This document shows positions 6,535 through 60,012 of a stretch of 64,000 nt of DNA, piece by piece; the first letter of the stretch is position 1; every line of letters starts with the position of its first letter. Origin of the DNA: an uncultured bacterium (GTDB lineage: Bacteria > Patescibacteriota > Minisyncoccia > Phycocordibacterales > UBA6065); NCBI GenBank assembly GCA_963841935.1, contig CAWJEP010000005.1, positions 164,003-228,002 on the forward strand, in the 5' to 3' direction. The notes under the pieces are model-generated. The model saw nothing but the letters and a program-made list of their open reading frames with translations, did no database searches and was not told the DNA's origin. The translations under genes and the position numbers were made by a program.

Positions 6535-7913
6535 TTAATTTTCCGCTTGCGCGAATTCTCCGAAATCGGCTTTCTCAATCGGCACGAAAGATGACTTGTC
6601 CTTATCGAAAGAGAGCTGAATCCTGCCGGTCGGGCCGTTCCTGTGTTTCTCAACGAGGATTTCGGTGGTGATGAAACTTTTTTCCCTGTTTTCTTCGCTG
6701 TATTTGTCTTCCTGATGAATAAACATCACGATGTCCGCGTCTTGCTCGATTGAGCCAGAGTCGCGCAAGTCGGAGAGGCGAGGGCGACCGCCGCGGCTTT
6801 CCACGGCGCGGGAAAGCTCGAGAGCGCGAGCACTGGGATATCGAATTCTTTCGCCATTTGTTTGAGCGAGCGGGAAATTTCGGTGATTTGCTGGACCAAG
6901 TTGTCGTTTTTGATGTTCGTCGGCATCATAAGCTGGAGATAGTCGACGATGACGAGGCCGAGCTTGCCTTCACGCTGTAGGCGACGAGCGACGGCGCGCA
7001 TTTTGACGATGCTGTTACTGCTTTGGTCGTCGATGTAAATCGGAGCGGTGGAAAGAGCCGCCAAGCCGTCACGAACAATGCTTAAATCTTTATCGATGTT
7101 TAATTTTCCGGTACGAAGTTTGAAAGCGTTGACGCGCGCTTCGGCGGCGAGCATCCTGTCGACAAGCTGAGGCACGGCCATTTCAAGAGAGAAAATACAA
7201 ACCGGAATCTTGCCGCGCACAGCGACATTTCTCGCGATATCGAGAGCGAGGGATGTTTTACCCATCGAGGGGCGAGCGGCAAGAATAATGAGGTCGGAAG
7301 GCTGAAGGCCGGAGAGGAGGTTGTCTATGTCTCTAAATCCTGTCGGGATGCCGCGCAGAGCGCCTTCGTTGTTGTGAATGTGGTCGAGGCGCTCCCAAGC
7401 TTCGTCAAGAGCGTCTTTGAGATTTATGATCCTGTTTTGCGGCACCATTGCCGAGACGTCGTGAATGATTTTGTTGGCCGCGTCCACTATTTCGTCCACG
7501 TTGCTATCTTCGTCCACGCCGACGTCTTTTATCATTTCTCCGGCTTCTATCATTCGCCTCATCAAAGCTTTCTTGTGGACGATGTCGGCGTAATTTTTTA
7601 TGTTCGAAGTGGACGGCACAGCGGAGACGAGCTCGCCGAGATACGCCGAACCGCCGACGGATTCGAGTTGGCCTTTTTCCGAAAGAAGGTTTGAAAGAGA
7701 GAGTAAATCTATCGGCTCGTTTTTGTTCGAGAGTTCGAAAATAGAATCCCAAATCGTCTTGTGTTTGTTCGAATAGAAAACGTCACCCGTGACAATGTCC
7801 ACGACATCGTGAATAGTGTCGGGTTTGATGATGATAGCGCCAAGCAAAGCGCGCTCGGCTTCGAGAGATTGCGGCGGTGCTTTGAGCAATGCGTCTTTGC
7901 TACGGTCTGCCAT
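6535..7913 (-). CDS. dnaB: Replicative DNA helicase DnaB, interrupted by an apparent 1-nt frameshift near 6810-6818
   Basis: The N-terminal domain and Walker A/B lie in ORF 6726-7913. The C-terminus ('SRGGRPRLSDLRDSGSIEQDADIV') continues in another frame in ORF 6535-6804. The expected 'ALSxLSRAVE' junction is missing one nucleotide. Confidence 0.8.
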
Positions 7914-20396: not shown

Positions 20397-21797
20397 TTAT
20401 TTCTTCGCTTTCTTGATTTCTATACCGAGTTCGCGCAGTTGCTCGGAGGAAACTTCCGACGGAGCTTTCATCATCAGGTCGCGACCTTCGCCGGTCTTGG
20501 CGAAAGCGATGACTTCGCGAATGTTCGGTTCGTTTTGGAGAATCGCCATAAGTCTGTCTATGCCCCACGCGATTCCTCCGTGCGGCGGCGCGCCATAGGA
20601 AAGCGCATCGAGCATGTGACCGAAATTTTCTTTTATTTTTTCCGGTTTGTGTCCCATAATTTCAAAAACTTTCTGCAAAGCTTCCGGCCGATGATTTCTT
20701 ATGCCGCCGCCACCAAGCTCGTAACCGTTTAACACGATGTCGTATTGCGTGGCGACTATTTCTCCGATTTTTTCTTTCTTCATAAGCAAATCCATATCTT
20801 CCGGCCTCGGCGCGGAAAAAGGATTGTGACTGAATGTCCAACCACCTTCGTCCGTTTTTTCGAATTGAGGAAAATCTATGACCCAACAGAAAGCCAAAAG
20901 GTTCGGGTCATTCTTGTCCGAGCGAATGTCCGGCTTATCGCTTTTGTATTTTTCCATCGCTTCCTTGTACGAAATTCTCGGAAAAGGAATGGCTTGGATT
21001 TTTTTCTGGGGCGCAAGGGTCTTTACGAGTTCTATGAGAAGTTTTTCGTTGAGCGCCATTACATCTTCCTGCTCGACGAAACTTATTTCCATATCAAGCT
21101 GGGTAAATTCCGGCTGGCGGTCGCCGCGAGTGTCTTCGTCACGCATACAACGCGCGAATTGAAAATATTTTTCAAAACCCGCGACCATTAGAAGCTGTTT
21201 GTATTGCTGGGGCGATTGAGGCAAAGCGTAGAATTTTCCGTTTTCGAGTCTCGACGGCACGATATAGTCGCGCGAACCTTCCGGCGTGGATTTTGTCAGC
21301 ATAGGCGTCTCGATTTCCGTGAAGCCTTCTTTCGTAAGCCAATTCCTGACGAAAAGATTGACCGCGTGGCGAAGACGCACATTTCCCTGCATTCTAGGGC
21401 GACGCAAATCTAGATAGCGGTATGTCAGACGGCTCTCCTCGCCGATTTCTTTACCGTCGCTTCGCACATCGATTGGCGGCGTCTGTGCTTCGTTAAGTAC
21501 GCTAATTTTAAGAATTTCGAGTTCGATAGTGCCGTTTTGTTTGTCTTTTTGAATATTTTTTTCCGGTCTGCCGTTTATTTTTCCTTCGACTTCGACGACC
21601 CACTCCGAGCGAACCTTTGAACCGACTTCGTGGGCCTCTTTGGCGTTCGGAAGAATGACGCCTTGGACATAGCCAGTCATATCGCGGAAATCAAAGAAAA
21701 TCATTTTGCCTTGGTCGCGACGAATATCCACCCAGCCTTTTATCGTAACTTTCTCTCCGACTTCTTTCTCCAAATCTTTTATGTATGTTCTTTTCAT
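20397..21797 (-). CDS. aspS: Aspartyl-tRNA synthetase (compact form lacking the bacterial GAD insertion)
   Basis: Class II motif 2 'FRDEDTRGDRQPEFTQLDMEISF', motif 3 'PPHGGIAWGIDRLMAIL', N-terminal OB fold. Confidence 0.85.
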   Translation of the reverse strand: MKRTYIKDLEKEVGEKVTIKGWVDIRRDQGKMIFFDFRDMTGYVQGVILPNAKEAHEVGSKVRSEWVVEVEGKINGRPEKNIQKDKQNGTIELEILKISVLNEAQTPPIDVRSDGKEIGEESRLTYRYLDLRRPRMQGNVRLRHAVNLFVRNWLTKEGFTEIETPMLTKSTPEGSRDYIVPSRLENGKFYALPQSPQQYKQLLMVAGFEKYFQFARCMRDEDTRGDRQPEFTQLDMEISFVEQEDVMALNEKLLIELVKTLAPQKKIQAIPFPRISYKEAMEKYKSDKPDIRSDKNDPNLLAFCWVIDFPQFEKTDEGGWTFSHNPFSAPRPEDMDLLMKKEKIGEIVATQYDIVLNGYELGGGGIRNHRPEALQKVFEIMGHKPEKIKENFGHMLDALSYGAPPHGGIAWGIDRLMAILQNEPNIREVIAFAKTGEGRDLMMKAPSEVSSEQLRELGIEIKKAKK

Positions 21798-21801
21798 ATT
21801 T

Positions 21802-22758
21802 TTATCTTACGCCAATGGCTTTTCGCACGATTTCCATTTTCTTCTCGGCCGCTTCGCGAGCCCTATCGGCACCCTTTGCTAAAATTTTCAAAACTTTCTT
21901 CGGGTCGCGCGCGATTTTCTCCCTGCGCTCGCGAAGCGGCCGGATAAATGCGATGAGGTCGGCAATCAAAGTTTCTTTCAAATCCTTGTACTTGCCTTTC
22001 TTCTCCGCGTATAGTTTTTCAAGCTCGGCTTTCGAGCGGAAGAGTGAGTGAATGGCATAGACATTTTCCGGTCTTTCGCCGGAAGAATCTGTGACAATTG
22101 TCATAACAAATTTCCTTATTTCTTCATCTGTCGCGAAAAGTCCGAGGTCATTGCCGTAGCTTTTAGACATCTTCCGGCCGTCATTTCCGGGAACAACCGC
22201 GACGGTCGAGAGAATCAAATCGGTCGGCAATTTGAAAACTTCGCTGTGCGAAAGTTCTGTTGAATTTTTGCGCCGTGTCGCGCGCGTATTCGACATGTTG
22301 TTTTTGGTCCTGCCCCACCGGCACGACATCGGTGTCGTAAAGCAAAATATCCGCCGCCATAAGCATCGGGTAATTGAAAGTGCCGACAGAGATTTCCTTG
22401 TCTTTGGCTTCGGCGTTTTTGTAAGCGTGCGCGCGCATTAGATATGGCATCGTCGTGATGGTGTCGAATATCCAAGCAAGCTCGGTATGCGTCGAGAACG
22501 TCGGATTGTTTGAAGATTACAGACTTCTTCGGGTCGAGGCCGATGGCGAGATAGTCGATGGCGAGGTTCAAGATTAAGTTGCGCATTTCCGTCGCCGTTT
22601 TGAATGAGATTTAGTCCGTGATAATCGGCAATGAAAAAGTAGCAGTCGTATTTGTCCTGCAAGTCGACGAATTGCTTCATCGCGCCGAAATAATTGCCTA
22701 TATGCGGCCGTCCCGTCGGTTTGACGCCCGAAAGAAGGATTTTCTTAGCCATCGCCAA
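21802..22758 (-). pseudogene. trpS: Tryptophanyl-tRNA synthetase, fragmented into 4 reading frames by at least 3 short indels (about 22255, 22490, 22590)
   Basis: ORF pieces 22438-22758 (HIGH 'TGRPHIGNY'), 22215-22586, 22181-22450 and 21802-22329 ('KMSKS') read in order as one TrpRS of about 319 aa. Removing a single C near 22490 restores 'VLEHTELAWIFD'. Confidence 0.75.
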
Positions 22759-22773
22759 ATAATACCAAAAAAT

Positions 22774-23361
22774 CTAACTTTTTTCAGCTGTTTTAAAAAT
22801 CCTCTTTCTTAATACCGAAATCGATAATAATAGGTTTATAAAAACAAGGTAAACGGGAAAAATATATTGTGGGAGTATCCATATTTTAACCGCAGCAAAA
22901 GCCGACACGGCGTTGATTATTCCTGTGGTAAATGGGTAAACATTCTCCGTTTCGGGGTATTTCCACGCCTTTATAATTGTAGGCAACGCAGCACTTCCGT
23001 CGCTTAATATGGCAAAGAATATAGCTGTAAGCGGATCTTTGGTAATCCACCAAAATATTAGAGCAAGTATCGAAAATCCTCCGCACACCCAATCAAAAAT
23101 TTCTAGTTTCCAGTAAGAATTTTTATTGGTAAAAGAAAAAATGAATACTAGAAGCGGTCCAAAGCCGGACATAAATATTGGAAGTGCCGCCCAAGTCACT
23201 CCATCTGCGAGTGCTGCCGCCGTAGCGATAAGCGGCGCAACTGACCACATAAACCAAGTTATCCTATTCGGCTTAGTGGTCCCCCGAAGAGTGTCTCTTA
23301 TGTAAGGAAAAATTCCGGCAAGATTGGCGAGCCCTCCGACGATAACTATATATTGGAGCAT
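22774..23361 (-). CDS. Integral membrane protein (about 6 TM), unknown function
   Basis: A run of hydrophobic helices. No family assignable. Confidence 0.5.
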   Translation of the reverse strand: MLQYIVIVGGLANLAGIFPYIRDTLRGTTKPNRITWFMWSVAPLIATAAALADGVTWAALPIFMSGFGPLLVFIFSFTNKNSYWKLEIFDWVCGGFSILALIFWWITKDPLTAIFFAILSDGSAALPTIIKAWKYPETENVYPFTTGIINAVSAFAAVKIWILPQYIFPVYLVFINLLLSISVLRKRIFKTAEKS

Positions 23362-41104: not shown

Positions 41105-41364
41105 ACGGCTTTTTCCTTTTTTAGAATCTCCGCTTTACTTTTTCCACGCAAACCGTTGTAACCGCCGACTTTCCCGTCGCTTCTGATGACGCGATGGCAA
41201 GGAATATTTTTGTCGGAATTTTTGCTCAAAATCATGCCGACGGAGCGCGCCGCGCCGGACTTACCGGCGCGGCGCGCCACTTCTTTGTACGTCAAAACTT
41301 TTCCTTTTGGAATTAAAGCGACTATTGCCAAAACTTTCTTGGAAAAATCAGAATAACGTTTCAT
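41101..41364 (-). CDS. MGMT-family DNA-binding protein (methylated-DNA-protein-cysteine methyltransferase C-terminal domain only)
   Basis: 'IPCHRVI' active-site motif. The 87-aa protein lacks the N-terminal domain. Confidence 0.75.
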   Translation of the reverse strand: MKRYSDFSKKVLAIVALIPKGKVLTYKEVARRAGKSGAARSVGMILSKNSDKNIPCHRVIRSDGKVGGYNGLRGKSKAEILKKEKAV

Positions 41365-42190
41365 TTAAAGGTTTTTCCTCGCTATTTTTTTTCGGTTTGT
41401 TGAGCTTTGCAAGCCTTGAAACTTTTGTCGACGGCTTTGCCGGTGCGACTGCGTCGAGAACCATTTTTCTGTAAGCGCAAAACTCGCATTCACGCGACGG
41501 CTCAGGCAATTCTTTCGAATCCAAGCATTTTTTGATTTCAAAAATCGTTTTCTCCACCCACGCGTCGCTACCTTTGTGGGCGATGAGGGTAATGTCAAAT
41601 TCCAACTTGCCTTCGAAAGCTTCTTTGTCTTTTTTGCCGTTGACATAGACGAAATATCCCGTGTCGGAAACTTTGAAACCGTTGCGGCGCAAAAGCCATT
41701 GATAGATTTCCATTTGGCGCTTGTATTGCGCGTCCCAACCGGAATCCGCGAGCGATTCCACTGCGGTATCTTTTGAAGTGGCTTTGTAATCAACGACGAT
41801 AAACTCGCCGTCTTTGTTGACCCAAATATCGTCTATGGCGCCGGAAATAGTCAGCCCCGTCGGCTTATGGAAAAATTCTATGCCTTTGAAATTCTCCCGC
41901 CAGACATTTAAAAGTTCGTGCGATAGCGGCACGGCGTCGACGCCGTATTTTTTCATCAAAGGGTGTGCCGTACCTGCCGCGCGATGAATGTCGAATTCTT
42001 TTTTCAAAAGAGCGTCGACGGCTAGGTTTAATGTGAATGCCGGCGGACGCGGACGAGCGACGCCCAATTTGTTGTCCAAATAGAAACATCTCCGACATTC
42101 GGTAAAAAGGTCTACCTTGGAGCGCGACAAACGAAACTTCGAACCGCCGTAATTCCAGTCCTTGCTTCTGGCTTCTCCCCTGATTTTCAT
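41348..42190 (-). CDS. PD-(D/E)xK nuclease-superfamily protein, Cas4/RecB-like, with four Cys (CxxC ... CxxC)
   Basis: 'IVVDYKATSK...EIYQWLL' core with N-terminal 'CRRC' and C-terminal 'CEFC'. No CRISPR array is nearby. Confidence 0.55.
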   Translation of the reverse strand: MKIRGEARSKDWNYGGSKFRLSRSKVDLFTECRRCFYLDNKLGVARPRPPAFTLNLAVDALLKKEFDIHRAAGTAHPLMKKYGVDAVPLSHELLNVWRENFKGIEFFHKPTGLTISGAIDDIWVNKDGEFIVVDYKATSKDTAVESLADSGWDAQYKRQMEIYQWLLRRNGFKVSDTGYFVYVNGKKDKEAFEGKLEFDITLIAHKGSDAWVEKTIFEIKKCLDSKELPEPSRECEFCAYRKMVLDAVAPAKPSTKVSRLAKLNKPKKNSEEKPLNETLF

Positions 42191-43023
42191 GCGACGCCGC
42201 AAATTAATTCCGCGTCCTCACCAATGATTTTCGCCTCGTCTTCGGAAATGCCCAGAGAAACGAGTGAATCTTTTTTCGCCAATATGTCTTTACACAATAC
42301 CAAGCCGTTCGATATGAGAATGCGGCGATTGCTTTCTGAAAGATTCGGGATGGATGTCACCGGATGTAGGCCAGCGTCTTCAATCATATGCTCGAGGTTG
42401 CCCTGCGCAGGATAGTTCCAGCCGACGAGGCGCAGTCCCTCGCAAGCGGCGTAGGCGATGGCTTTGTCGGTAAATTTAGTGTTGGTCACGAGAATACCTT
42501 GCGTCAATTTTCTGATTTTTCCGCCGAAATCAAATTGCGAGAGCGATAAGTCGTCGGTGCGGGCTTTGACGTAAAGCGCCACCTTCAAATCTGATTTTAT
42601 TCCTATTTCGTTGTGGAATTTCGCCTCAACCATAATGAGCTCTTCGCCTTTCCAAGCGACGACGTCGACTTCATGCTCGACGCATTTGCCGCGAACGATT
42701 TGATCTGTCACCGCTTCGTAGCCACGAGCGCGGAAAAGGTCGGCGACGAATTTTTCAAAAGGATAACCCGCCGGACCTAAATCCAGGATGGCCCGGCGCA
42801 AAGAATATTTATGCGCCGCCGGACGGGAATCCCTAGACAGAAGGTCAAAGGCATGAGTGTAGATTTCCGAAGTGGTCATGCCTTCTTTGAGTTCGCTCTC
42901 CACGTGGTCGGCGATTTTTTTTGTCATTTCTCTGTCGGCGCCGGTGCGAATCAAGGAGGATTCCAGTTTTTTGCGATTAAAAGTTTCTTTGGTGCCGTCG
43001 GCTTTGACGATTTCTATACTCAT
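42187..43023 (-). CDS. ATP-cone domain fused to Mrr-like restriction-endonuclease domain
   Basis: The N-terminal 'IEIVKADGTKETFNRKKLESSLIRTGAD' has ATP-cone character. 'VDVVAWKGEELIMVEAKF' is the (D/E)xK core of the Mrr/NucS-like fold. Confidence 0.55.
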   Translation of the reverse strand: MSIEIVKADGTKETFNRKKLESSLIRTGADREMTKKIADHVESELKEGMTTSEIYTHAFDLLSRDSRPAAHKYSLRRAILDLGPAGYPFEKFVADLFRARGYEAVTDQIVRGKCVEHEVDVVAWKGEELIMVEAKFHNEIGIKSDLKVALYVKARTDDLSLSQFDFGGKIRKLTQGILVTNTKFTDKAIAYAACEGLRLVGWNYPAQGNLEHMIEDAGLHPVTSIPNLSESNRRILISNGLVLCKDILAKKDSLVSLGISEDEAKIIGEDAELICGVA

Positions 43024-46507: not shown

Positions 46508-49393
46508 CTAGTTTGGAACAATAAAATTTATTATTTTGTTTTTCACGTAAATTATTTTCGACGGTGTTTTTCCGGAGAGCCATTTCTCTAATTCCGACGC
46601 GGCAAAAGCGACTGCTTTTGCCGCGTCTTCGTCGGCATCCGCGGGCACCTCAATCACCGCGCGAACTTTGCCGTTTACTTGTACGGCAATATTTACTTTG
46701 GCGTCTTTGATAAACGCTTCATCCCACTTAGGCCAATCGGAAAGATGTATGGACTTTTTGTTTCCAAGCGAGCGCCATAATTCTTCGCTTATGTGTGGAG
46801 CGAAAGGCGCGAGAAGCTTCAAATAGCTCTCAAAATCGGCGCGAGCTATTGTCGGCACCTTGTCAAAAGCGTTTTGCAAAATCATAAGCGAACTTATCGC
46901 CGTGTTGAAACGCAAATTGGCGATGTCTTCGGTAACTTTCTTGATTGTTTTGTGTAAAAGCGTGTTTGTCGAAGAAAAAACAGCCTCTGGCGAGCGCGTA
47001 GTCTTAGCGGAGTCGGCGGAGCGCACAAGCGAGCCAGAGGCTGTTTTTTCGGAGACTTTCCACACGCGTTCGATGAACCGCCGCGAGCCAATCATACTGT
47101 CGGTGGACCATGCTATGGCTTGATCGAAAGGTCCCATAAACATTTCGTAAACGCGCAAAGTGTCGGCGCCGTATGTCGCGACTATGTCGTCGGGATTTAC
47201 GACATTGCCGAAACGTTTGGACATTTTTCTGCCGTCTTCGCCCATTATGAGTCCGACCGACTGCAATTTTTTAAACGGCTCGATTGTCGAGACAACGCCA
47301 ATGTCGTAAAGAAATTTGTGCCAAAAACGCGCGTATATGAGATGGCGTGTGGCGTGCTCGGCGCCGCCCACATAAAAGTCCACGCTGTTCCAATATTTTT
47401 CTTTTTTCGGAGAAACTAAAACCTTGGAGTCTTTCGGGTCCATATATCGCAAGTAATACCAAGAGCTCCCTGCCCATTGCGGCATCGTATTCGTCTCTCG
47501 TTTCATTCCTTTGAAATTGACCCATTTAGAAATCTCAGCCAAAGGCGACTCCCCCGTTCCCGTCGGTTCGTAATATTTCACTTTCGGCAATACCACCGGC
47601 AAATCTTTTTCCGAGACCGGCACTATTTTATTTCCGTTATGAAGCACCGGGATCGGCTCACCCCAATAGCGCTGCCGTGAGAAAACCCAATCTTTCAATT
47701 TGTATTTCGTCACCCATTTTCCGCCGGCTTTTTCGATGGCGTTCCTATCGGCAAACGGTTCGTCCTTTACGGGCAACTTGAACTTTTCCGCGAACGCCGC
47801 GTCTCTCTCGTCGTGTTTCGGCACTCCCATCACGGCTCCCGTGCCGTAATCGGCAAGGACATAGTCAGCAATCCAGACCGGCACCTCTTCCCCATTCACT
47901 GGATTTACCGCCTTGATTCCTTTCAATTCAACGCCGGTTTTTTCTTTCTTTGCGTCCGTGCGCTCAATTTCCGTTTTGATTCTCGCGGCGGCGACATATT
48001 TCACGACTTCTTTTTCGTTTTTCACTTCATGCAAAAGTTTTTCCACGAGCGGATGCTCCGGAGAAAGCACGACATACGTCACGCCGAAAAGCGTGTCTGG
48101 ACGAGTAGTGAAAACTTTTATTTTTTCCGTTTGATTTTTTATGGCGAAATCGATTTCCGCGCCTTCGCTTCGGCCAATCCAATTTCTCTGCGCCTCTTTT
48201 ATGGATTCCGGCCAATCAAGAAGCGGCTTCACAATATGGCGTGGCGCGCCGTCCATTACCAAATCCCAGCCGAGTTTCGAACCTTCGGCCGTCATTGCGT
48301 CACGAACTTTTTCCTCGGGAAGCCAAGTGACTTCGTGTTTGGCTTGTTCGTCAGCTACGACAGGAGCTTGTTCGCCGTCTTTTAGTTTGAAATAAAAAGA
48401 AGTGAAATGTCCGACGCGGTTTTCGTCTTTCGGCGGATGGAAAAATGTCGAGTGGTATTGACCGGCGCTTCTTTTCACGAGCGTCAGGTTTTTAAATCCC
48501 GTCTCTTCGAATATTTCCGCTCGCGCCGCTTCTTCCGGCGTCTGGCCTTTTTCGATGCCGCCAGTGATAGGAGTCGTCCAATCCACCTTTTTCCATTTGA
48601 GAACTATAAATTTCTTCTCCGACCAGTGTTCGACAAAAGCGCATATGGCGTTTCTCGGAACAAACGGCTTGTCCAATCTCACTTTGCCCGGAACATCGCT
48701 ATTCATATGGGTGATTCCAAATTCGCCATTCGGCAATGTCTCAAAAATGTCGCCGTTTGGCAAAACATTGGTGTCCAAGTCTTTCAAAAGTCTGTCGGCG
48801 TAATCGGTGATTTTCAAAACCCACTGGCGCATCGGTTTCTTCTCGACCGGCGTGCCGCAGCGCTCGCAGCGACCGTCTTCGACGTCTTCGTTCGCGAGGC
48901 CGGTCTTACACGACGGACACCAATTTATCGGCTCGTATGATTCGTAAGCCAAGCCTTTTTCCAAAAGTTTGAGAAAAATCCATTGCGTCCATTTGTAATA
49001 TTTCGGGTCGGTCGTGTTGATTTCCCTACTCCAATCATAATCAAAACCAATGATTTCCAGCTGTTTTTTGTACCTTGCGACATTTTTCGCCACGGCCACG
49101 ACCGGATTGGTCTTGGTCAAAATGGCGTAATTTTCCGCCGGCAAGCCGAAAGCGTCGAAACCCATTGGATGTAAGACGTTGTGCCCCTGCATCCTTTTCA
49201 TTCGGGAGACGATGTCGGTCGCGATGTAGCCCTTCGGATGGCCGACATGAAGACCTTCGCCCGAAGGATACGGAAACATATCGAGAACATAAAACTTGGG
49301 CTTGGGAGAATCATCCTTGGTCGCGTATATTTTCTTTTTCGCCCACCCCTTCTGCCACTTTTTTTCTATTTTCTTATGGTCGTATTGTTTCAT
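46508..49393 (-). CDS. leuS: Leucyl-tRNA synthetase carrying (i) an inserted NUDIX hydrolase domain and (ii) an in-frame palindromic-element insertion
   Basis: 'HVGHPKGY' HIGH motif, 'KMSKRFGN' and editing/anticodon domains. A Nudix box 'GGIEKGQTPEEAARAEIFEETGF' sits between '...LKDLD' and 'WPESIKEAQRNWIGRSEG'. Start is the ATG at 49393. Confidence 0.9.
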   Translation of the reverse strand: MKQYDHKKIEKKWQKGWAKKKIYATKDDSPKPKFYVLDMFPYPSGEGLHVGHPKGYIATDIVSRMKRMQGHNVLHPMGFDAFGLPAENYAILTKTNPVVAVAKNVARYKKQLEIIGFDYDWSREINTTDPKYYKWTQWIFLKLLEKGLAYESYEPINWCPSCKTGLANEDVEDGRCERCGTPVEKKPMRQWVLKITDYADRLLKDLDTNVLPNGDIFETLPNGEFGITHMNSDVPGKVRLDKPFVPRNAICAFVEHWSEKKFIVLKWKKVDWTTPITGGIEKGQTPEEAARAEIFEETGFKNLTLVKRSAGQYHSTFFHPPKDENRVGHFTSFYFKLKDGEQAPVVADEQAKHEVTWLPEEKVRDAMTAEGSKLGWDLVMDGAPRHIVKPLLDWPESIKEAQRNWIGRSEGAEIDFAIKNQTEKIKVFTTRPDTLFGVTYVVLSPEHPLVEKLLHEVKNEKEVVKYVAAARIKTEIERTDAKKEKTGVELKGIKAVNPVNGEEVPVWIADYVLADYGTGAVMGVPKHDERDAAFAEKFKLPVKDEPFADRNAIEKAGGKWVTKYKLKDWVFSRQRYWGEPIPVLHNGNKIVPVSEKDLPVVLPKVKYYEPTGTGESPLAEISKWVNFKGMKRETNTMPQWAGSSWYYLRYMDPKDSKVLVSPKKEKYWNSVDFYVGGAEHATRHLIYARFWHKFLYDIGVVSTIEPFKKLQSVGLIMGEDGRKMSKRFGNVVNPDDIVATYGADTLRVYEMFMGPFDQAIAWSTDSMIGSRRFIERVWKVSEKTASGSLVRSADSAKTTRSPEAVFSSTNTLLHKTIKKVTEDIANLRFNTAISSLMILQNAFDKVPTIARADFESYLKLLAPFAPHISEELWRSLGNKKSIHLSDWPKWDEAFIKDAKVNIAVQVNGKVRAVIEVPADADEDAAKAVAFAASELEKWLSGKTPSKIIYVKNKIINFIVPN
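46974..47050. repeat. Palindromic repeat element copy D inserted in frame within leuS (arms aaaaaacagcctctgg / ccagaggctgtttttt)
   Basis: Core gagcgcgtagtcttagcggagtcggcggagcgcacaagcgag. It is translated as ...KTASGSLVRSADSAKTTRSPEAVFS... in LeuRS. Confidence 0.8.
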
Positions 49394-49823
49394 TTTTAAA
49401 TTTGCGCAGAGCGAGATATATGAGTGCGATGAGAGCAATGCCGAGAATGACGACTCTCATCCAGCCGTAAGCCGACGACCAATATCTGAAAGACGCTATG
49501 ACAAGCGTGAGTATTCCGGAGAACGAAAGCGATGTGGAAACCACGGCATTTGTTTTCAAAAAGAAACTTAGGACGATGAGAATGACTCCGACGGCGACGA
49601 GAGTCATAAAGACTTCCGCCTGATAATTATTTTCCGCGGCGGTGTAATTATTTGAGCAAATGACATCGTTGGATTGCGGCGTAATAACGTCCGTTTGCGG
49701 GCAGAAATCGTTATATTGTGGCTCTTGGTAAATAAGCGAAAGAGAATAATTTATGAACATATTGGCGACGATGACGATGCCAATGATGAGCGACCATTTG
49801 AGAAGTTTTGATTGCTTTTGCAT
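49374..49823 (-). CDS. Hypothetical membrane protein (3-4 TM)
   Basis: Hydrophobic helices. It overlaps the leuS start by about 20 nt. Confidence 0.5.
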   Translation of the reverse strand: MQKQSKLLKWSLIIGIVIVANMFINYSLSLIYQEPQYNDFCPQTDVITPQSNDVICSNNYTAAENNYQAEVFMTLVAVGVILIVLSFFLKTNAVVSTSLSFSGILTLVIASFRYWSSAYGWMRVVILGIALIALIYLALRKFKNETIRP

Positions 49824-50316: not shown

Positions 50317-52062
50317 TTAGGAAAATCTCTGGTCTATATCGCCCATCTTTTTGTGAACGACTTTCTCTATGTCGCTGATGTTGTTCTTGAGGCGTTTAAT
50401 GAGCGCTTCTTCTTCGTTCGTAAGTGTCCGACGAGTTTTGGCGCGTTCCAAAAGTCGTATGTGGTCTTCAAGGTCTTCTTGAAGAACCTTAAACGAATTG
50501 TCAATGACGAATTCCGCTCCGTGTAATTCTTTGCGGAAATTTTTCTTCATCAGACGGAGTTTGTATGTCGCGAAAAAGACAAGAAATATAAGAAGGAATA
50601 TAAGAGCGAGGGTTGGAATGATGATGATTAGAGCATTCAAGGCGTACGAACCTATGACGAAGATAATGGGCGTGCTTACGATAACCACCACGCTTTGCGA
50701 AGGTAAACTTTTCGCCCCGCGACTGTCGGTCGCTACGGCATAGATAGTGTAAGCGCCGGATGTCAATGGTTTTTCAAATACCGCTGACCAACTGCCGCTC
50801 TTGTCCGAAGTAACTTGGTTGTCAATCGGAGTGTTGCTACCGCTTGTCGCAAAGACGTCAATGGTCACGTTGGGAAGAGCCGTTCCCGTGATTCTTACCA
50901 AATCGCCGTTTTTGGCCTGTTGCGGATACTCGGTAATGGAAGGAGTCGCAATGCCGACAACATTCACGTCAACGGAGGCGATGTCAAAGTTGCCGGCTCC
51001 GTCAAACACTTTACCAATAATGGAATGGTCGCCGGGAGCGAGAGGCCCCGTATTGTAGACACCGGTTCCGTCATCAACCCATTTGACCGGGTCGGCTTTG
51101 TCAATCTGAATCGTGTAATACGGCGTGCCGGAAATACTGTCCAAGGATGAAAGAGACAGCTGTACATTGGGGTCGGTCGGGTCGCTTCGCGGGATTTCTT
51201 TCATCACGAAAGATTCCGGCGGCGTGGTATCCACTTTTATGACGAAGTCCGATATGGCTCCCCAGCCATTCGCGTTTTCATCCTGTACGTGGAAATGCCA
51301 TACACCGGGTGTTATATCCGTTAGCTCTTTTGAACTTATGGCCGGCTTATAGACAACCGTCGGAACAGCATCCGACAACCTGCCGAAAAGAACCCGGGTG
51401 GCGATGGTGTCCGGTGAATTATTCCACGAGAGTTCGGCTGTCGTGCTCGTGTACCAATCGTTTTGGTTCGGATGCGTTGACGAAGTAATATTCGGAGCGG
51501 GTGGCGTGCCGGAAGAAGGAACAAAGGACGGCGTCGCCGGAACGACAACCTGACCGTTACTGGTTCCTAAAGTAAACGACGCGGAACCGATGGTCTTGAG
51601 AATGTTTGTCCCTTGTCCGTCATTGGCCAAAACCGACGCCGAAGAAAACGAGACTGGCGCCGAGCCGCCGGCGATAACTTTGAAATTGATAGTCGCGACG
51701 ACGGCGTCCGGACCTTGAAAACCGGGATTGGGAATTATACCCTCGAAGGAAACCGTGCCAGCGGCGTTTGAAAACGTCGGTTGGGTTACCCAAAGAGTCA
51801 CGACTGACCCAGTCGTTGAGACCGACGATACTTGCAGTTTATCCGTGGGAAAATTAATTAGACCGGAGACGGCGTTTATTGATTGGGCGGCGCTTGAAAC
51901 GACGACTTGAACCGAGAATGAATTGTCGAGATTGTATGTTCCACTTGACGGAGAAAGAATGAGAGAGTCGTCGGCGTAGACGACACTTGTTGACATTGCA
52001 AAAACCGCGAGAGAGACAACTAACGCGTAGAAAAACGCCGCGAATATATGAGGTACACGCAT
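50317..52062 (-). CDS. Surface protein: signal peptide, cohesin-like domain, Ig-like domains, C-terminal TM anchor and cytoplasmic coiled-coil tail
   Basis: The cohesin-like beta-sandwich 'LILSPSSGTYNLDNSFSVQVVVSS...ATINFKVIAGGSAPVSF' and a C-terminal 'IIIIPTLALIFLLIFLVFF' helix. Confidence 0.65.
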   Translation of the reverse strand: MRVPHIFAAFFYALVVSLAVFAMSTSVVYADDSLILSPSSGTYNLDNSFSVQVVVSSAAQSINAVSGLINFPTDKLQVSSVSTTGSVVTLWVTQPTFSNAAGTVSFEGIIPNPGFQGPDAVVATINFKVIAGGSAPVSFSSASVLANDGQGTNILKTIGSASFTLGTSNGQVVVPATPSFVPSSGTPPAPNITSSTHPNQNDWYTSTTAELSWNNSPDTIATRVLFGRLSDAVPTVVYKPAISSKELTDITPGVWHFHVQDENANGWGAISDFVIKVDTTPPESFVMKEIPRSDPTDPNVQLSLSSLDSISGTPYYTIQIDKADPVKWVDDGTGVYNTGPLAPGDHSIIGKVFDGAGNFDIASVDVNVVGIATPSITEYPQQAKNGDLVRITGTALPNVTIDVFATSGSNTPIDNQVTSDKSGSWSAVFEKPLTSGAYTIYAVATDSRGAKSLPSQSVVVIVSTPIIFVIGSYALNALIIIIPTLALIFLLIFLVFFATYKLRLMKKNFRKELHGAEFVIDNSFKVLQEDLEDHIRLLERAKTRRTLTNEEEALIKRLKNNISDIEKVVHKKMGDIDQRFS

Positions 52063-52895
52063 ATGCTTAATTCAAGAATTATTATAACAAAAATAATCAA
52101 GGCAAGTCGATGATGCGGTGCATAAACCATTTCAACGCGAATATTGCCTGATTTATCAACGGCTTTTACGTAAACCTTTTGGATGCCGGACTGATTGGAA
52201 AGCTCGTAAGGACTTGTTGCTATCTTCCAATCGCCCGCGCTCGGCGGAAAAAGGAATGTCTCGGCTATTTCAAAGTGGTCAATGCCGCTATCCTTATCCG
52301 TGGTATCAAACGAAACGAAATATTTTCCGCCAAATAAAGAATCGCTGCGCGAGATGAGCGGAGTAAACTGCTCCGGCGGGATAGTGTCGGAAATTTCCGC
52401 CCTCTGCGGATACTTGGCAACCGGAGCGATGGTGAAAGTAAGAGGTAAAGATGAAGCGGTTATTTCCGTACCAAGACCGTCGTTTTTCAAAAGAGTCATT
52501 TCGTCAACGGAAACCATGGCGTCGCCTTCCTTCTCGGCGCTAAACAGAAGAGTAAAGATTACTTGATGAGCTCCTTCCAGGCCGCCGGGAATGATTCCGG
52601 AGAAAGATATTTCGTTCGTCGTAGTCCCATATGTCGGACGTTCTATCCAAAGCGGCACGACGGAATTGTCGTATTCAATACCCTGGAAGGAAAGCGTGTC
52701 GGAGAAAGACACGGCACCGGAAAGAGCGTTCACCGAATCGTTGGCAGATGAGAAAGAAAGTGACGTGAGGAAACTGTCGCCTTGGTGAACTTGCGTTGCC
52801 GGCGCGTCAAAGCCGACAGACGCGGCGTAGATAAAGGCAAAAGGCGCCAAAAGAAAAATAAAAGTGAAAAATGAAATGTAAAAATTTTTATGCAT
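52020..52895 (-). CDS. Surface protein with cohesin-like domain and C-terminal TM anchor
   Basis: Signal peptide 'MHKNFYISFFTFIFLLAPFAFIYA', cohesin-like 'FLTSLSFSSANDSVNALSGAVSF...VIFTLLFSA' and a C-terminal TM 'LALIIFVIIILELSICVYLI'. Confidence 0.6.
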   Translation of the reverse strand: MHKNFYISFFTFIFLLAPFAFIYAASVGFDAPATQVHQGDSFLTSLSFSSANDSVNALSGAVSFSDTLSFQGIEYDNSVVPLWIERPTYGTTTNEISFSGIIPGGLEGAHQVIFTLLFSAEKEGDAMVSVDEMTLLKNDGLGTEITASSLPLTFTIAPVAKYPQRAEISDTIPPEQFTPLISRSDSLFGGKYFVSFDTTDKDSGIDHFEIAETFLFPPSAGDWKIATSPYELSNQSGIQKVYVKAVDKSGNIRVEMVYAPHHRLALIIFVIIILELSICVYLIYSRRFSTR

Positions 52896-52899
52896 AGTA

Positions 52900-54252
52900 T
52901 TATCCCGTCCAATGCGAGGCCATGATACTGAAGTCAACGAGGTCAACCTTGCCGTCACCGTTTAAGTCCGCCGACTTTGGCGGATTTGAACGATTAAACC
53001 AATACGCGAGAATGGAAAAATCAATGAGATTTACCTTACCGTCGCAGTTTATGTCTGATTTTATGCAAGCGGTGGAAACTGGTACTAAAACGTCTTGCGT
53101 GCCGACGGAGAAACCAACCGAGGCGCTAAACTCGCTTATATTGCCTTGAGTTGAGGATTTTGATTTCGTCGTGTGGTCGCCGTAGTCAAGCGGCGTGGTA
53201 TCAAGATTGTAAAGATAAATACCGCTTTTATCCGACGCGGTAACTCCAAAAAGGGTCTGGTCGGAATTTACTTGTATGGTAACCGTGCTTGAAGCGGATG
53301 TTTGCCCGAAAATAGCAAGATTGTCGCCTTTCTTAACCTCGCTTTTATCAACGGCAATGGTGGGAACGATGAAAATACTCCCAATGTTTGTCGTCACGCC
53401 GGATGTCACGCTTGCCGGAAACGTTAAGAGGTCGGAACGCCGTCCCGCGTTGTCGCTTCCATAAACGGAAAACAAATAATTTCCCGCCGGGACACCGCTT
53501 ACCTCTACTTGAAAATTAGCGTCGGCGTCGGCAATAGTGGAAGCGACAACTTGAGCATCTTCAAGAATCGTCACATCACTTGACGGATACGCCCGACCAG
53601 AAAAAATCACGTTGCCCATGCCGGAGGGAGTTGAATTATAATTTCCGCCGCCGCCCCCTCCACCACCTCCTCCGCCTCCACCTCCACCACCGCCTCCACC
53701 GCCGCCACCTGATGATGCCGGAGTCGCGGAGACCTCGGACGAAGTCGCGATAACATTGCTGAACGTGTCCAATACATCCACCACAAAATAGTAAGTCGTG
53801 CCATTGGAAAGACCTGTTTGCGCGTGAGAAAACGTGTTACCGACGGAAGTGAAAGAGTAAGGTCCGCCCGGCGTCGTCCCCTGCCCTATTGAATATCCGG
53901 AAATGCTAAGTCCGCTTCCGGCGGTTGCCGACGTCCAAGACAAAGATACTTGAGAATCGCCGGGAGTCGTCTGGACGACGGGCGAAGAAAAATAGGGAAA
54001 ATAAAGAAAACCACCTAGAACGTCAAAAGAGTTCCCCGTTGAGATGCCTATGGCCGCCTGGTCCATGGCTCCGAGCAATTCAAAACTATTGGACGAACTA
54101 TAATTCCCGGAGTTTATAATCGGATTACGGACTTGATAATCAGAGGAATAGAATGTTTGTGAATGAACGGGTTTTATGTTTAAAAAAAATGTGCCGGAAA
54201 TTAGCAATAAACAAATTAGAAAAAATTGTTTCTGTAAATTTTTAAAATACAT
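52900..54252 (-). CDS. Secreted protein with FN3/Ig-like domains, a (Gly)23 linker and a C-terminal type-I dockerin domain
   Basis: Two Ca-binding dockerin repeats 'DINCDGKVNLIDFSILAYWF' and 'DLNGDGKVDLVDFSIMASHW', a 23-Gly run and a signal peptide. Confidence 0.7.
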   Translation of the reverse strand: MYFKNLQKQFFLICLLLISGTFFLNIKPVHSQTFYSSDYQVRNPIINSGNYSSSNSFELLGAMDQAAIGISTGNSFDVLGGFLYFPYFSSPVVQTTPGDSQVSLSWTSATAGSGLSISGYSIGQGTTPGGPYSFTSVGNTFSHAQTGLSNGTTYYFVVDVLDTFSNVIATSSEVSATPASSGGGGGGGGGGGGGGGGGGGGGGNYNSTPSGMGNVIFSGRAYPSSDVTILEDAQVVASTIADADANFQVEVSGVPAGNYLFSVYGSDNAGRRSDLLTFPASVTSGVTTNIGSIFIVPTIAVDKSEVKKGDNLAIFGQTSASSTVTIQVNSDQTLFGVTASDKSGIYLYNLDTTPLDYGDHTTKSKSSTQGNISEFSASVGFSVGTQDVLVPVSTACIKSDINCDGKVNLIDFSILAYWFNRSNPPKSADLNGDGKVDLVDFSIMASHWTG

Positions 54253-55259: not shown

Positions 55260-58200
55260 TTAACAATTCCAAATCACTCCGTTTATATCCATAATCGACG
55301 CGGCCGGCATTCCATTGACTGTTTTTATTGAAGTTTTATCGAGATTGTTTATTGTTTTTAGTTCCACGACGCAAACAGATGGGCTGACCGAAGGTGAGAT
55401 ACTCGGTGACGGGCTGACGCTTGGACTGGGAGAAACGCTCGGTGAAATTGACGGTGATGGACTGATTGATGGTGAAGCTGATGGACTTGGAGAAGTGCTC
55501 GGTGAGAGTGACGGTGAAAGTGACGACAAAGGTGACGGTGATATGGATGGCGATATCGATGGAGATTCGGATGGAGAGATAGATGGACTAAGAGACGGCG
55601 AAGGGCTGACGCTCGGTGACAAAGATGGGCTCGGACTGACAGATGGAGATACCGAGGGTGAAAGGCTTGGGCCGATGGACGGCGAAAGTGACGGCGAAAG
55701 TGATGGGCTGATACTCGGCGAGAGACTTGGCGAGAGAGACGGTGATGGAGAAACTGACGGGGAAACTGAAGGACTTAAACTTGGACTAAGAGATGGTGAG
55801 GGCGAAACCGAAGGAGAAATGCTCGGAGAAAGCGATGGTGAAAGTGATGGGCTCGGACTAACTGAAGGTGAAATGCTCGGCGAGAGAGACGGGCTGAGTG
55901 ACGGCGACAAACTCGGCGAAAGTGAAGGACTTGGAGATACGGACGGCGAAACGGACGGAGAAATACTCGGCGAGAGAGATGAACCAGCTGAAGGAGAAAC
56001 CGAGGGAGAGATACTTGGCGAAAGTGACGGACTTGGGGAAACGGACGGCGAAACCGAAGGTGAAATGCTTGGCGAGAGTGATGGGCTTGGCGAAACCGAC
56101 GGCGAAATACTCGGTGAAAGTGAAGGAGAAAGTGACGGAGACAAACTCGGCGAGAGAGACGGCGATGGAGAAACTGACGGACTAACTGAAGGACTTAAAG
56201 ATGGCGAGAGCGAGGGACTTGGTGAAGTCGAAGGTGAAACGCTTGGGCTAAGCGAAGGTGAAAGAGACGGCGAGAGACTCGGCGATAGACTTGGGCTCGG
56301 TGAAACTGAGGGTGAAACCGACGGAGAAATACTTGGCGAGAGTGAAGGGCTTGGACTAACCGATGGTGAAATACTTGGTGAAAGAGATGGAGACAAACTT
56401 GGCGAGAGACTCGGCGAAATGCTCGGGCTCGGTGAGACCGAAGGGCTGACTGATGGTGAGATGCTCGGTGAGAGTGATGGCGAAGGTGAAACCGATGGTG
56501 AGATCGATGGTGAGAGAGATGGACTAAGTGATGGAGAAAGTGATGGCGATATCGAAGGGCTTGGACTGACTGATGGTGAGACCGAAGGACTCAAACTCGG
56601 TGACAGAGACGGTGATGGCGAAACCGACGGCGAAATACTCGGTGAAAGTGAAGGAGAAAGTGACGGAGACAAACTTGGCGAGAGAGACGGCGATGGAGAA
56701 ACTGACGGACTAACTGAAGGACTTAAAGATGGCGAGAGCGAGGGACTTGGTGAAGTCGAAGGTGAAACGCTTGGGCTAAGCGAAGGTGAAAGAGACGGCG
56801 AGAGACTCGGCGATAGACTTGGGCTCGGTGAAACTGAGGGTGAAACCGACGGAGAAATACTTGGCGAGAGTGAAGGGCTTGGACTAACCGATGGTGAAAT
56901 ACTTGGTGAAAGAGATGGAGACAAACTTGGCGAGAGACTCGGCGAAATGCTCGGGCTCGGTGAGACCGAAGGGCTGACTGATGGTGAGATGCTCGGTGAG
57001 AGTGATGGCGAAGGTGAAACCGATGGTGAGATCGATGGTGAGAGAGATGGACTAAGTGATGGAGAAAGTGATGGCGATATCGAAGGGCTTGGACTGACTG
57101 ATGGTGAGACCGAAGGACTCAAACTCGGTGACAGAGACGGTGATGGCGAAACCGACGGCGAAATACTCGGTGAAAGTGAAGGAGAAAGTGACGGAGACAA
57201 ACTTGGCGAGAGAGACGGCGATGGAGAAACTGACGGACTAACTGAAGGACTTAAAGATGGCGAGAGCGAGGGACTTGGTGAAGTCGAAGGTGAAACGCTT
57301 GGGCTAAGCGAAGGTGAAAGAGACGGCGAGAGACTCGGCGATAGACTTGGGCTCGGTGAAACTGAGGGTGAAACCGACGGAGAAATACTTGGCGAGAGTG
57401 AAGGGCTTGGACTAACCGATGGTGAAATACTTGGTGAAAGAGATGGAGACAAACTTGGCGAGAGACTCGGCGAAATGCTCGGGCTCGGTGAGACCGAAGG
57501 GCTGACTGATGGTGAGATGCTCGGTGAGAGTGATGGCGAAGGTGAAACCGATGGTGAGATCGATGGTGAGAGAGATGGACTAAGTGATGGAGAAAGTGAT
57601 GGCGATATCGAAGGGCTTGGACTGACTGATGGTGAGACCGAAGGACTCAAACTCGGTGACAGAGACGGTGATGGCGAAACCGACGGCGAAATACTCGGTG
57701 AAAGTGAAGGAGAAAGTGACGGAGACAAACTTGGCGAGAGAGACGGCGATGGAGAAACTGACGGACTAACTGAAGGACTTAAAGATGGCGAGAGCGAGGG
57801 ACTTGGTGAAGTCGAAGGTGAAACGCTTGGGCTAAGCGAAGGTGAAAGAGACGGCGAGAGACTCGGCGATAGACTTGGGCTCGGTGAAACTGAGGGTGAA
57901 ACCGACGGAGAAATACTTGGCGAGAGTGAAGGGCTTGGACTAACCGATGGTGAAATACTTGGTGAAAGAGATGGAGACAAACTTGGCGAGAGACTCGGCG
58001 AAATGCTCGGGCTCGGTGAGACCGAAGGGCTGACTGATGGTGAGATGCTCGGTGAGAGTGATGGCGAAGGTGAAACCGATGGTGAGATCGATGGTGAGAG
58101 AGATGGACTAAGTGATGGAGAAAGTGATGGCGATATCGAAGGGCTTGGACTGACTGATGGTGAGACCGAAGGACTCAAACTCGGTGACAGAGACGGTGAT

Positions 58201-60012
58201 GGCGAAACCGACGGCGAAATACTCGGTGAAAGTGAAGGAGAAAGTGACGGAGACAAACTTGGCGAGAGAGACGGCGATGGAGAAACTGACGGACTAACTG
58301 AAGGACTTAAAGATGGCGAGAGCGAGGGACTTGGTGAAGTCGAAGGTGAAACGCTTGGGCTAAGCGAAGGTGAAAGAGACGGCGAGAGACTCGGCGAAAT
58401 GCTCGGGCTCGGTGAGACCGAAGGGCTGACTGATGGTGAGATGCTCGGTGAGAGTGATGGCGAAGGTGAAACCGATGGTGAGATCGATGGTGAGAGAGAT
58501 GGACTAAGTGATGGAGAAAGTGATGGCGATATCGAAGGGCTTGGACTGACTGATGGTGAGACCGAAGGACTCAAACTCGGTGACAGAGACGGTGATGGCG
58601 AAACCGACGGCGAAATACTCGGTGAAAGTGAAGGAGAAAGTGACGGAGACAAACTCGGCGAGAGAGACGGCGATGGAGAAACTGACGGACTAACTGAAGG
58701 ACTTAAAGATGGCGAGAGACTCGGCGATAGACTTGGGCTCGGTGAAACTGACGGACTGACTGAAGGACTTAAAGATGGCGAGAGCGAGGGACTTGGTGAA
58801 GTCGAAGGTGAAATGCTCGGCGAGAGAGAGGGCTGAAAGTGACGGCGAGAGACTCGGCGATAGACTTGGGCTCGGTGAAACTGAGGGTGAAACCGACGGA
58901 GAAATACTTGGCGAGAGTGAAGGGCTTGGACTAACCGATGGTGAAATACTTGGTGAAAGAGATGGAGACAAACTTGGCGAGAGACTCGGCGAAATGCTCG
59001 GGCTCGGTGAGACCGAAGGGCTGACTGATGGTGAGATGCTCGGTGAGAGTGATGGCGAAGGTGAAACCGATGGTGAGATCGATGGTGAGAGAGATGGACT
59101 AAGTGATGGAGAAAGTGATGGCGATATCGAAGGGCTTGGACTGACTGATGGTGAGACCGAAGGACTCAAACTCGGTGACAGAGACGGTGATGGCGAAACC
59201 GACGGCGAAATACTCGGTGAAAGTGAAGGAGAAAGTGACGGAGACAAACTCGGTGAAAGACTCGGCGAAAGACTTGGACTTGGAGATACGGAGGGTGAAA
59301 TGGACGGAGAAAGAGATGGAGAAATACTCGGACTAAGCGATGGACTAAGTGACGAAATAAACCATGTGATTTGAATGACTCCGTTTCCTCCCTGTCCTCC
59401 TGTGTTACCGTTTCTTCCCGACCCTCCACCACCGCCTCCATAGTTTGCTCCGTTAGCGCCAGTTGCGTTTACTCCTCCAGCTCCTCCGTTTCCGGCTGGA
59501 GTTCCCCCATTTGCTCCACCAGCGTGAGTTCCCGACCCATTCGCTCCGGTTCCTCCGTTTCCAGTGTTCCCGGCTCCTCCACCTCCTCCACCTCCGTTGT
59601 TGCTACCTCCGTTTCCTCCGTTTCCTCCGTTGTGTGACGTCCAAGTGACGACTCCGTTACCGGTTGTGTTGCTATTACCCCCGACTCCACGTGCGCCACC
59701 GGCGTTGCCTCCACCACCTCCACCGGCCGCCTCGATGATAAGAGTGTTGCCCGCAGTATTGAAAAATGTGGTTCCGCCAGCGCCGCCGGATGCGTTTGCG
59801 GTTCGTGTTCCGCCGTTTCCGGCGGAATAATTAAAAGCGATGTTCGGACCAGATATGGTTATAGTTGTCTGAGCCCAAGCGCCACCACCACCACCACTAC
59901 CGTTGTTGCCTCCACCACCTCCACCTCCACCTCCAATAACCTGAACAACCGCGGAAGTTGCTGTGGTGCTATTCCATGTACCGCTACCTGTAAGATTTGA
60001 TGTTGTCGCCAT
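55260..60012 (-). CDS. Giant (about 1580 aa) protein: Gly/Asn-rich N-terminal domain followed by more than 1100 aa of (S-P-S-L/I/V)n low-complexity repeat. Interrupted by one frameshift at about 58836-58850.
   Basis: ORF 58690-60012 starts with a non-repetitive Gly-rich domain and runs in frame into SPSx repeats. ORF 55260-58652 continues the same repeat. The repeat consensus gains +1 nt at about 58845. All neighbours are minus-strand. The plus-strand alternative (acidic GExxGE repeat, ORF 55315-58836) cannot be excluded. Confidence 0.55.
55400..59340. repeat. Tandem-repeat DNA: 12-nt (4-codon) units organised into 528-bp higher-order repeats (at least 4 near-identical copies at 56101-58212, plus partial copies)
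   Basis: 'accgaaggactcaaactcggtgacagagacggtgatggcgaaaccgacggcgaaatactc' recurs at 56581, 57109, 57637, 58165 (period 528) and again at 58561 (period 396). Confidence 0.9.

Follow-up and report, generated by a model that had tools for sequence, protein, structure and literature searches.

Programmed frameshift sites such as the one in prfB are conserved, and real indels in bacterial genomes are deletion-biased and concentrated in repeats. Single-base insertions outside repeats are atypical of real slippage mutations. Reading frames are also interrupted in the consensus step of assembly: Nanopore consensus sequences built from less than ~40x coverage retain frameshifting indels, mainly homopolymer errors (PMC9262707), and where haplotypes have been collapsed, nearby allelic variants shift the read alignments and give rise to INDEL errors that truncate open reading frames (ORFs) (PMC8445201). 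The Microflora Danica (MFD) metagenome-assembled genomes (MAGs) are Nanopore-only metaFlye assemblies that received one round of Medaka polishing (PMC12313526). Here we examine a 64-kb stretch of DNA (the window) in which trpS, the gene for tryptophan--tRNA ligase (TrpRS), is interrupted more than once, and we conclude, with a probability of roughly 0.85, that the breaks are consensus errors of a long-read metagenome assembly and not mutations of the organism.

The trpS gene lies between a gene for a 195-aa membrane protein (22774..23361) and aspS (20397..21797), and in the assembled sequence it is represented by four overlapping ORFs (Table 1). The frames of these ORFs (coordinate mod 3) run 0, 2, 1, 0 and therefore imply three successive +1 shifts, the net change being +3, i.e. 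one codon; piece a, for instance, is out of frame past residue ~53 and runs to a stop at 22438. The insertions were placed by DNA alignment of the window gene with two intact relatives, the loci L002 and L001, which leaves exactly three gap columns (gene positions 161, 262 and 507), in each of which the window has a base that both relatives lack. In window coordinates these are three 1-nt insertions within 347 bases, at ~22592, ~22491 and ~22246, and the shifts proposed near 22590, 22490 and 22255 in the first-pass annotation thus all fall within 10 nt of the aligned sites. Cutting the three columns yields an ORF of 948 nt and 315 aa with zero stops, a length like that of the closest relatives.

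At each site the identity of the inserted base is ambiguous within 1-3 nt. At insertion 1 the residue is Ala without the A, Glu without the C and Asp without one G, and every one of these occurs in relatives; at insertion 2 dropping the C gives Glu and dropping the A gives Ala, both of them residues found in close relatives at that column; the earlier proposal that removal of one C near 22490 mends the frame is borne out by the translation that results (Table 1). At insertion 3, and likewise at the site in the SPS-repeat gene described below, the alternative deletions yield synonymous third-position variants. None of the trpS shift sites, with the contexts GGCGACGGAAA, CTCGACGCATA and TCGCACAGCGA, contains slippery or homopolymeric sequence, and as judged by eye in the alignment with L002 and L001, mismatches to the relatives are not enriched around the insertions. 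A search for repeats, Rfam elements and tRNAs near trpS returned nothing relevant.

Table 1. Positions of the trpS pieces, the five indel sites and related features, in window coordinates unless another contig is named; bracketed bases are the extra ones and ^ marks a missing one.
Feature	Position	Strand	Description
trpS (tryptophan--tRNA ligase)	21802..22752	-	951 nt as assembled; 948 nt / 315 aa without the three extra bases
trpS ORF piece a, frame 0	22438..22752 (ORF 22438..22758)	-	TrpRS residues 1 to ~53, PHIGN included
trpS ORF piece b, frame 2	22215..22586	-	TrpRS residues ~55 to 87 (EMRNLILNLAIDYLAIGLDPKKSVIFKQSDVL), then out of frame
trpS ORF piece c, frame 1	22181..22450	-	With an upstream extension; TrpRS residues ~88 to 168 (HTELAW...QKFNRTFA)
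trpS ORF piece d, frame 0 again	21802..22329	-	TrpRS residues 169-315, KMSKS included
Insertion 1 (+1)	22590..22592	-	Gene strand GGCG[A]CGGAAATG; context GGCG[A]CGGAAA
Insertion 2 (+1)	22491	-	Gene strand CTCGA[C]GCATACC; without the C, ...VLEHTELAWIF...
Insertion 3 (+1)	22246..22247	-	Gene strand TTCGCA[C]AGCGAAG; without one base, ...NRTFASEVFKLP...
dnaB	6535..7913	-	One base missing at ~6818/6819 (-1); CTCTCG^AGCTTTCC vs expected TCG CAG CTT (SQL)
SPS-repeat surface-type gene	55260..60012	-	One extra base at ~58833/58834 (TCA[G]CCC), +1
Perfect tandem repeat in SPS gene	56149..58397	.	528-nt unit, 4.26 identical copies, 2,249 nt
L003, Logan contig of run ERR11630400	23834..22615	-	100% identical; stops 23 nt upstream of insertion 1
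L089, Logan contig of run ERR11630400	53701..49881		100% identical
L004 trpS copies	L004:1630-2610 and L004:10001-10945		Both above the TIGR00233 cut-off

The four fragments had been read at the outset as a single TrpRS with the HIGH and KMSKS motifs in order, and the joined translation upholds this in full. The HIGH-type motif PHIGN occupies residues 16-20 (~22707..22693) and KMSKS residues 194-198 (22173..22159), in the correct order. Against TIGR00233, the curated trpS equivalog model (the family, of class I aminoacyl-tRNA synthetases, is also described by PF00579), the restored protein scores 271.5 bits over residues 3-314 with a cut-off of 176.75, while each of the pieces as assembled covers just parts of the model. 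Among thousands of TrpRS matches the best is a 315-aa protein with 94% identity over 100% of the length (E=1.9e-191), and the best matches come from Parcubacteria/Paceibacteria-type metagenome contigs. The gene order trpS-aspS-scpA-scpB-peptidase S11 is common to the window, L001 and L002, and the synteny with L001, whose contig is long enough to reach that far, extends via ftsW-murG-gltX. By orthology and synteny, signature motifs and full-length family match, this is a bacterial trpS. The 104-aa product of piece a, in turn, is recorded from a single source, the 268,473-bp contig from which the window is taken.

If the gene had been decaying for any length of time, relaxed selection would be expected in the restored frame as a dN/dS approaching 1 or a surplus of replacements in the window lineage, and neither is seen in any segment. 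The four segments delimited by the insertions have dN/dS values of 0.026, 0.034, 0.082 and 0.053 relative to L002, and the whole restored gene has a dN/dS of 0.056 at a dS of 0.71 relative to L002 and of 0.052 relative to L001, next to 0.063 for intact L001 against intact L002. A three-taxon decomposition assigns a branch-specific dN of 0.018 to the window, as compared with 0.022 for the intact L002. With segment values of 0.03-0.08 and no excess dN on the branch, purifying selection in the restored frame is undiminished; the gene has been under full purifying selection for essentially all its divergence. The 12 closest proteins are all uninterrupted (313-323 aa), and in an alignment with them the window TrpRS leaves the near-invariant consensus at ~3 positions, the invariant columns of that alignment carrying the window residue by definition.

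The shifts themselves are confined to the window. They are absent from 87 of 87 related loci examined, 86 of which give one full-length HSP, so that programmed frameshifting at a conserved site is excluded. In the remaining locus, L076, the split lies elsewhere: its trpS (L076:1998-3097, CAYIQG010000002.1), in a MAG from a short-read co-assembly, lies in two frames with halves 78% and 56% identical to the query, which suggests that a frameshift or a chimeric join may be present there too.

The first-pass annotation had also described dnaB and the SPS-repeat gene as frameshifted, and both events could be located (Table 1). In dnaB the DnaB_C match stops at model position 177 of 255, after which another frame continues; at the break point relatives encode LALSQLSR, and the sequence that the window has in its place therefore lacks one base. 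The out-of-frame tail (92 aa, LSRAVESRGG...ADFGEFA) is identical or nearly so to intact 459-aa DnaB relatives, and intact 459-aa DnaB proteins share a 90% cluster with it. The 395-aa N-terminal product and the 63-aa C-terminal ORF are nonetheless separate entries in public protein collections.

Removal of the extra base from the SPS gene gives a single ORF of 1,583 aa. Its product has a Gly/Asn-rich N-terminal domain followed by ~1,300 aa of [LIVST]SPS repeats, and an antisense ORF of 1,190 aa (55264..58836) arises as a mirror image of the repeat. In all, unrelated genes are broken by isolated 1-nt indels, each of which can be mended to give a conserved protein, three times in trpS and once each in dnaB and the SPS gene.

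A further ~55 ORFs of the window appear complete when compared with Pfam or with 1.8 billion representative proteins, in that they match Pfam models over the whole length or stop where a gene would naturally end. Among them are the genes for HisRS, AspRS, CysRS, GluRS, LeuRS, AlaRS, DnaK, DnaJ, MurG, FtsW, Gap and ribosomal proteins. Further candidate frameshifts at rpe/tkt, in a split transketolase, at ftsW/PBP, in mnmA, and at AlaRS with its downstream ORF all look like normal gene boundaries. The stretch 50317..54252 (-), considered as a frameshifted giant gene, consists of three separate complete genes with overlaps of 43-59 nt; they encode a protein with dockerin and Big_6 domains, a 291-aa protein and a Big_13 protein, and the second of these matches, over its whole length, a large family of ~290-aa proteins that stand alone and are uncharacterised.

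In LeuRS (46508..49438, -), a NUDIX-like domain (PF00293, E=7.5e-12) with a degenerate Nudix box (GGIEKGQTPEEAARAEIFEETGF) is inserted at residues ~292-388, where it separates the catalytic core from the editing domain. A single ORF at 42187..43023 (-) joins an ATP-cone to an Mrr-type restriction endonuclease domain, and the ORF that follows it (41348..42202, -) encodes a PD-(D/E)XK/Cas4-like nuclease.

The window thus carries five indels in 64 kb (~8 per 100 kb). Of these, three fall within 347 bp, which has a probability of p=0.0009 under uniform placement and therefore indicates a local cause at trpS; the cluster suggests a problem of local coverage or of strain mixture. Four of the five are insertions and the dnaB event is a deletion, and a signature that would lead one to expect mostly insertions is, to our knowledge, documented for no platform. 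None of the five lies in a homopolymer run of at least 4 bases, though the window has ~490 runs of at least 5, and the five sites share no consistent sequence or methylation motif, being CG-rich and in some cases containing TCGA or CTCGAG. Indels placed in this way, outside repeats, fit mis-alignment or a poorly supported consensus better than they fit slippage mutation.

The contig itself gives an indication of the type of assembly. The source contig, held in NCBI and ENA, contains the perfect 2,249-nt tandem repeat of the SPS gene, and short reads could not have resolved such a repeat at an exact copy number; its presence therefore points to assembly from long reads. Flye-style contig names and MFD long-read MAG labels are found on close relatives in the NCBI and ENA archives, and the MFD project is a possible source of the contig and of run ERR11630400. 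Independent sequence is available in part from Logan, a k-mer assembly made separately, of which two contigs match the window over a total of 5,041 nt without any difference, so that the consensus is otherwise very good. Logan contigs over the five indel sites were sought and none was found, a gap that is not significant by itself because only about one third of the tested genes are complete in Logan. Nor did a conspecific trpS, whether intact or frameshifted, appear in a collection of 15 billion proteins (best match 94%, and a query with the middle region also gave at most 94%), in the JGI metagenomes (best 86.5% nucleotide identity) or among the matches listed for GTDB representatives (best 78%).

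We propose that the window comes from a Paceibacteria-type (Patescibacteria/CPR) bacterium in which trpS would be single-copy, normal and functional, and that the three extra bases of the gene would be consensus errors in a long-read metagenome assembly, the cluster marking a short stretch in which the consensus was probably poorly supported. Low local coverage is one candidate cause; another is the co-assembly of strains, whose nearby SNPs may have been mis-aligned and written out as indels (cf. PMC8445201). The broken dnaB bears directly on this proposal. A cell in which both TrpRS and DnaB were truncated would not be viable, and since the two genes are broken together and neither has decayed, sequence errors are a far better explanation than biology. 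A local assembly or consensus problem was what the first-pass annotation had expected absent a second trpS, and that expectation is supported by the dN/dS values, by the dnaB tail, by the lack of conservation of the shifts and by the apparently long-read contig.

The main biological alternative is a genuine and very recent inactivation, with the window holding a fresh trpS pseudogene for which another trpS of the genome, a host or a partner would substitute. The deposited sequence does after all carry the frameshifts, and with piece a stopping at 22438 no full protein could be made from it; moreover, the parts of the consensus that were checked elsewhere are error-free. Paralogs do occur in the clade, as L004 (CAYRRP010000001.1), a related Patescibacteria MAG with an orthologue 74% identical to the window TrpRS, carries a pair of bona fide trpS genes with 7.4 kb between them, the second of them just 32% identical to it, so a redundant copy is conceivable a priori. 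In the 64-kb window, however, tblastn with the restored protein finds one locus and no second trpS, and the gene shows no relaxation, with dN/dS at ~0.05 in every segment and no surplus of dN in its lineage. Three independent insertions in 347 bp with neither substitutions nor deletions alongside them would require an extraordinary course of mutation, in which, unlike real bacterial indels, none of the events falls in a repeat, and dnaB, with its undecayed tail, would call for the simultaneous loss of a second essential, single-copy gene. Even given a second trpS copy, the unrelaxed selection and the broken dnaB argue against a real pseudogene, and we regard recent inactivation as unlikely. 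In its strongest form, in which the trpS insertions and the dnaB deletion are all real and the dominant genotype of an episymbiotic Patescibacteria population has just lost TrpRS and suffered damage to DnaB, it is more improbable still. Were that so, the cells would survive on a second trpS paralog, as in L004, or on functions supplied by host or kin, and the window would have caught the loss of an essential gene just as it begins; early loss of this kind is made unlikely by the selection analysis.

Programmed recoding, in which three +1 ribosomal frameshifts or transcriptional slippage events would restore the frame, draws on the fact that the three shifts, each of +1, add up to one codon and thereby leave the N- and C-terminal parts in a common frame. 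We give it next to no credence, as slippery or homopolymeric sequence is absent at every site, the shifts occur in no relative, dnaB needs a shift in the opposite direction and the window contains no Rfam element. A more specific form of the consensus-error explanation is that the region is a local chimeric consensus of two strains, an A/C (or A/G) polymorphism having been written as both bases in tandem. The Ala/Glu alternatives at sites 1 and 2, both of which occur in close relatives at the exact columns, and the synonymous alternatives at site 3 and the SPS site are what this mechanism would leave behind, and it is documented for collapsed diploid assemblies (PMC8445201). Yet in a simulated null the tandem-allele signature appears at 28-52% of random insertions, so that three hits are not significant, and the dnaB event, a deletion, is at odds with it. 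L003, the Logan contig, breaks off 23 nt short of site 1, as at a graph branch, but this is 22 nt too early for a simple bubble there, and in any case only about one third of the tested genes are complete in Logan. Given the non-significant tandem-allele test, we offer strain mixture as a tentative sub-mechanism, conceivable but with the odds somewhat against it.

On the consensus-error reading, the broken trpS is a warning about data quality in a long-read MAG, and it adds no new feature to the biology. Within 64 kb the contig has at least five consensus errors that shift a reading frame; three of them split the gene of an essential aminoacyl-tRNA synthetase into four ORFs, and automatic annotation will record trpS and dnaB either as absent or as pseudogenes. 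In the Patescibacteria especially, such errors feed claims about reduced gene sets and host dependence. Spurious short proteins also enter the databases, where the 104-aa and 63-aa fragments are already cluster representatives.

Among described systems, programmed +1 frameshifting in prfB/RF2 resembles the window trpS in that a +1 shift is needed for the full protein, but the prfB shift takes place at one slippery site, which is conserved and has a stimulatory context, whereas trpS here has three unconserved sites without slippery motifs. Genuine frameshift pseudogenes of reductive and host-associated bacteria are alike in presenting an essential-looking gene split into several ORFs; true pseudogenes, however, show relaxed selection, mixed deletion-biased lesions and usually a functional substitute, and none of these is seen for the window trpS. 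The consensus indels of long-read assemblies (PMC9262707; proovframe, 10.1101/2021.08.23.457338; IDEEL-type tests) are similar both in that 1-nt indels split conserved genes and in that several unrelated genes are affected per contig, on contigs with repeats that only long reads resolve. They differ in that the published residual errors are mainly in homopolymers, as against none of the five here, on a presumed long-read platform. The collapsed haplotypes of Trypanosoma brucei Tb427 (PMC8445201) offer a parallel if closely spaced variants mis-align the reads and spurious indels then truncate ORFs, and mis-alignment of this kind would explain three events clustered in 347 bp; Tb427 is a diploid eukaryote, whereas the second haplotype here would be a hypothetical co-occurring strain.
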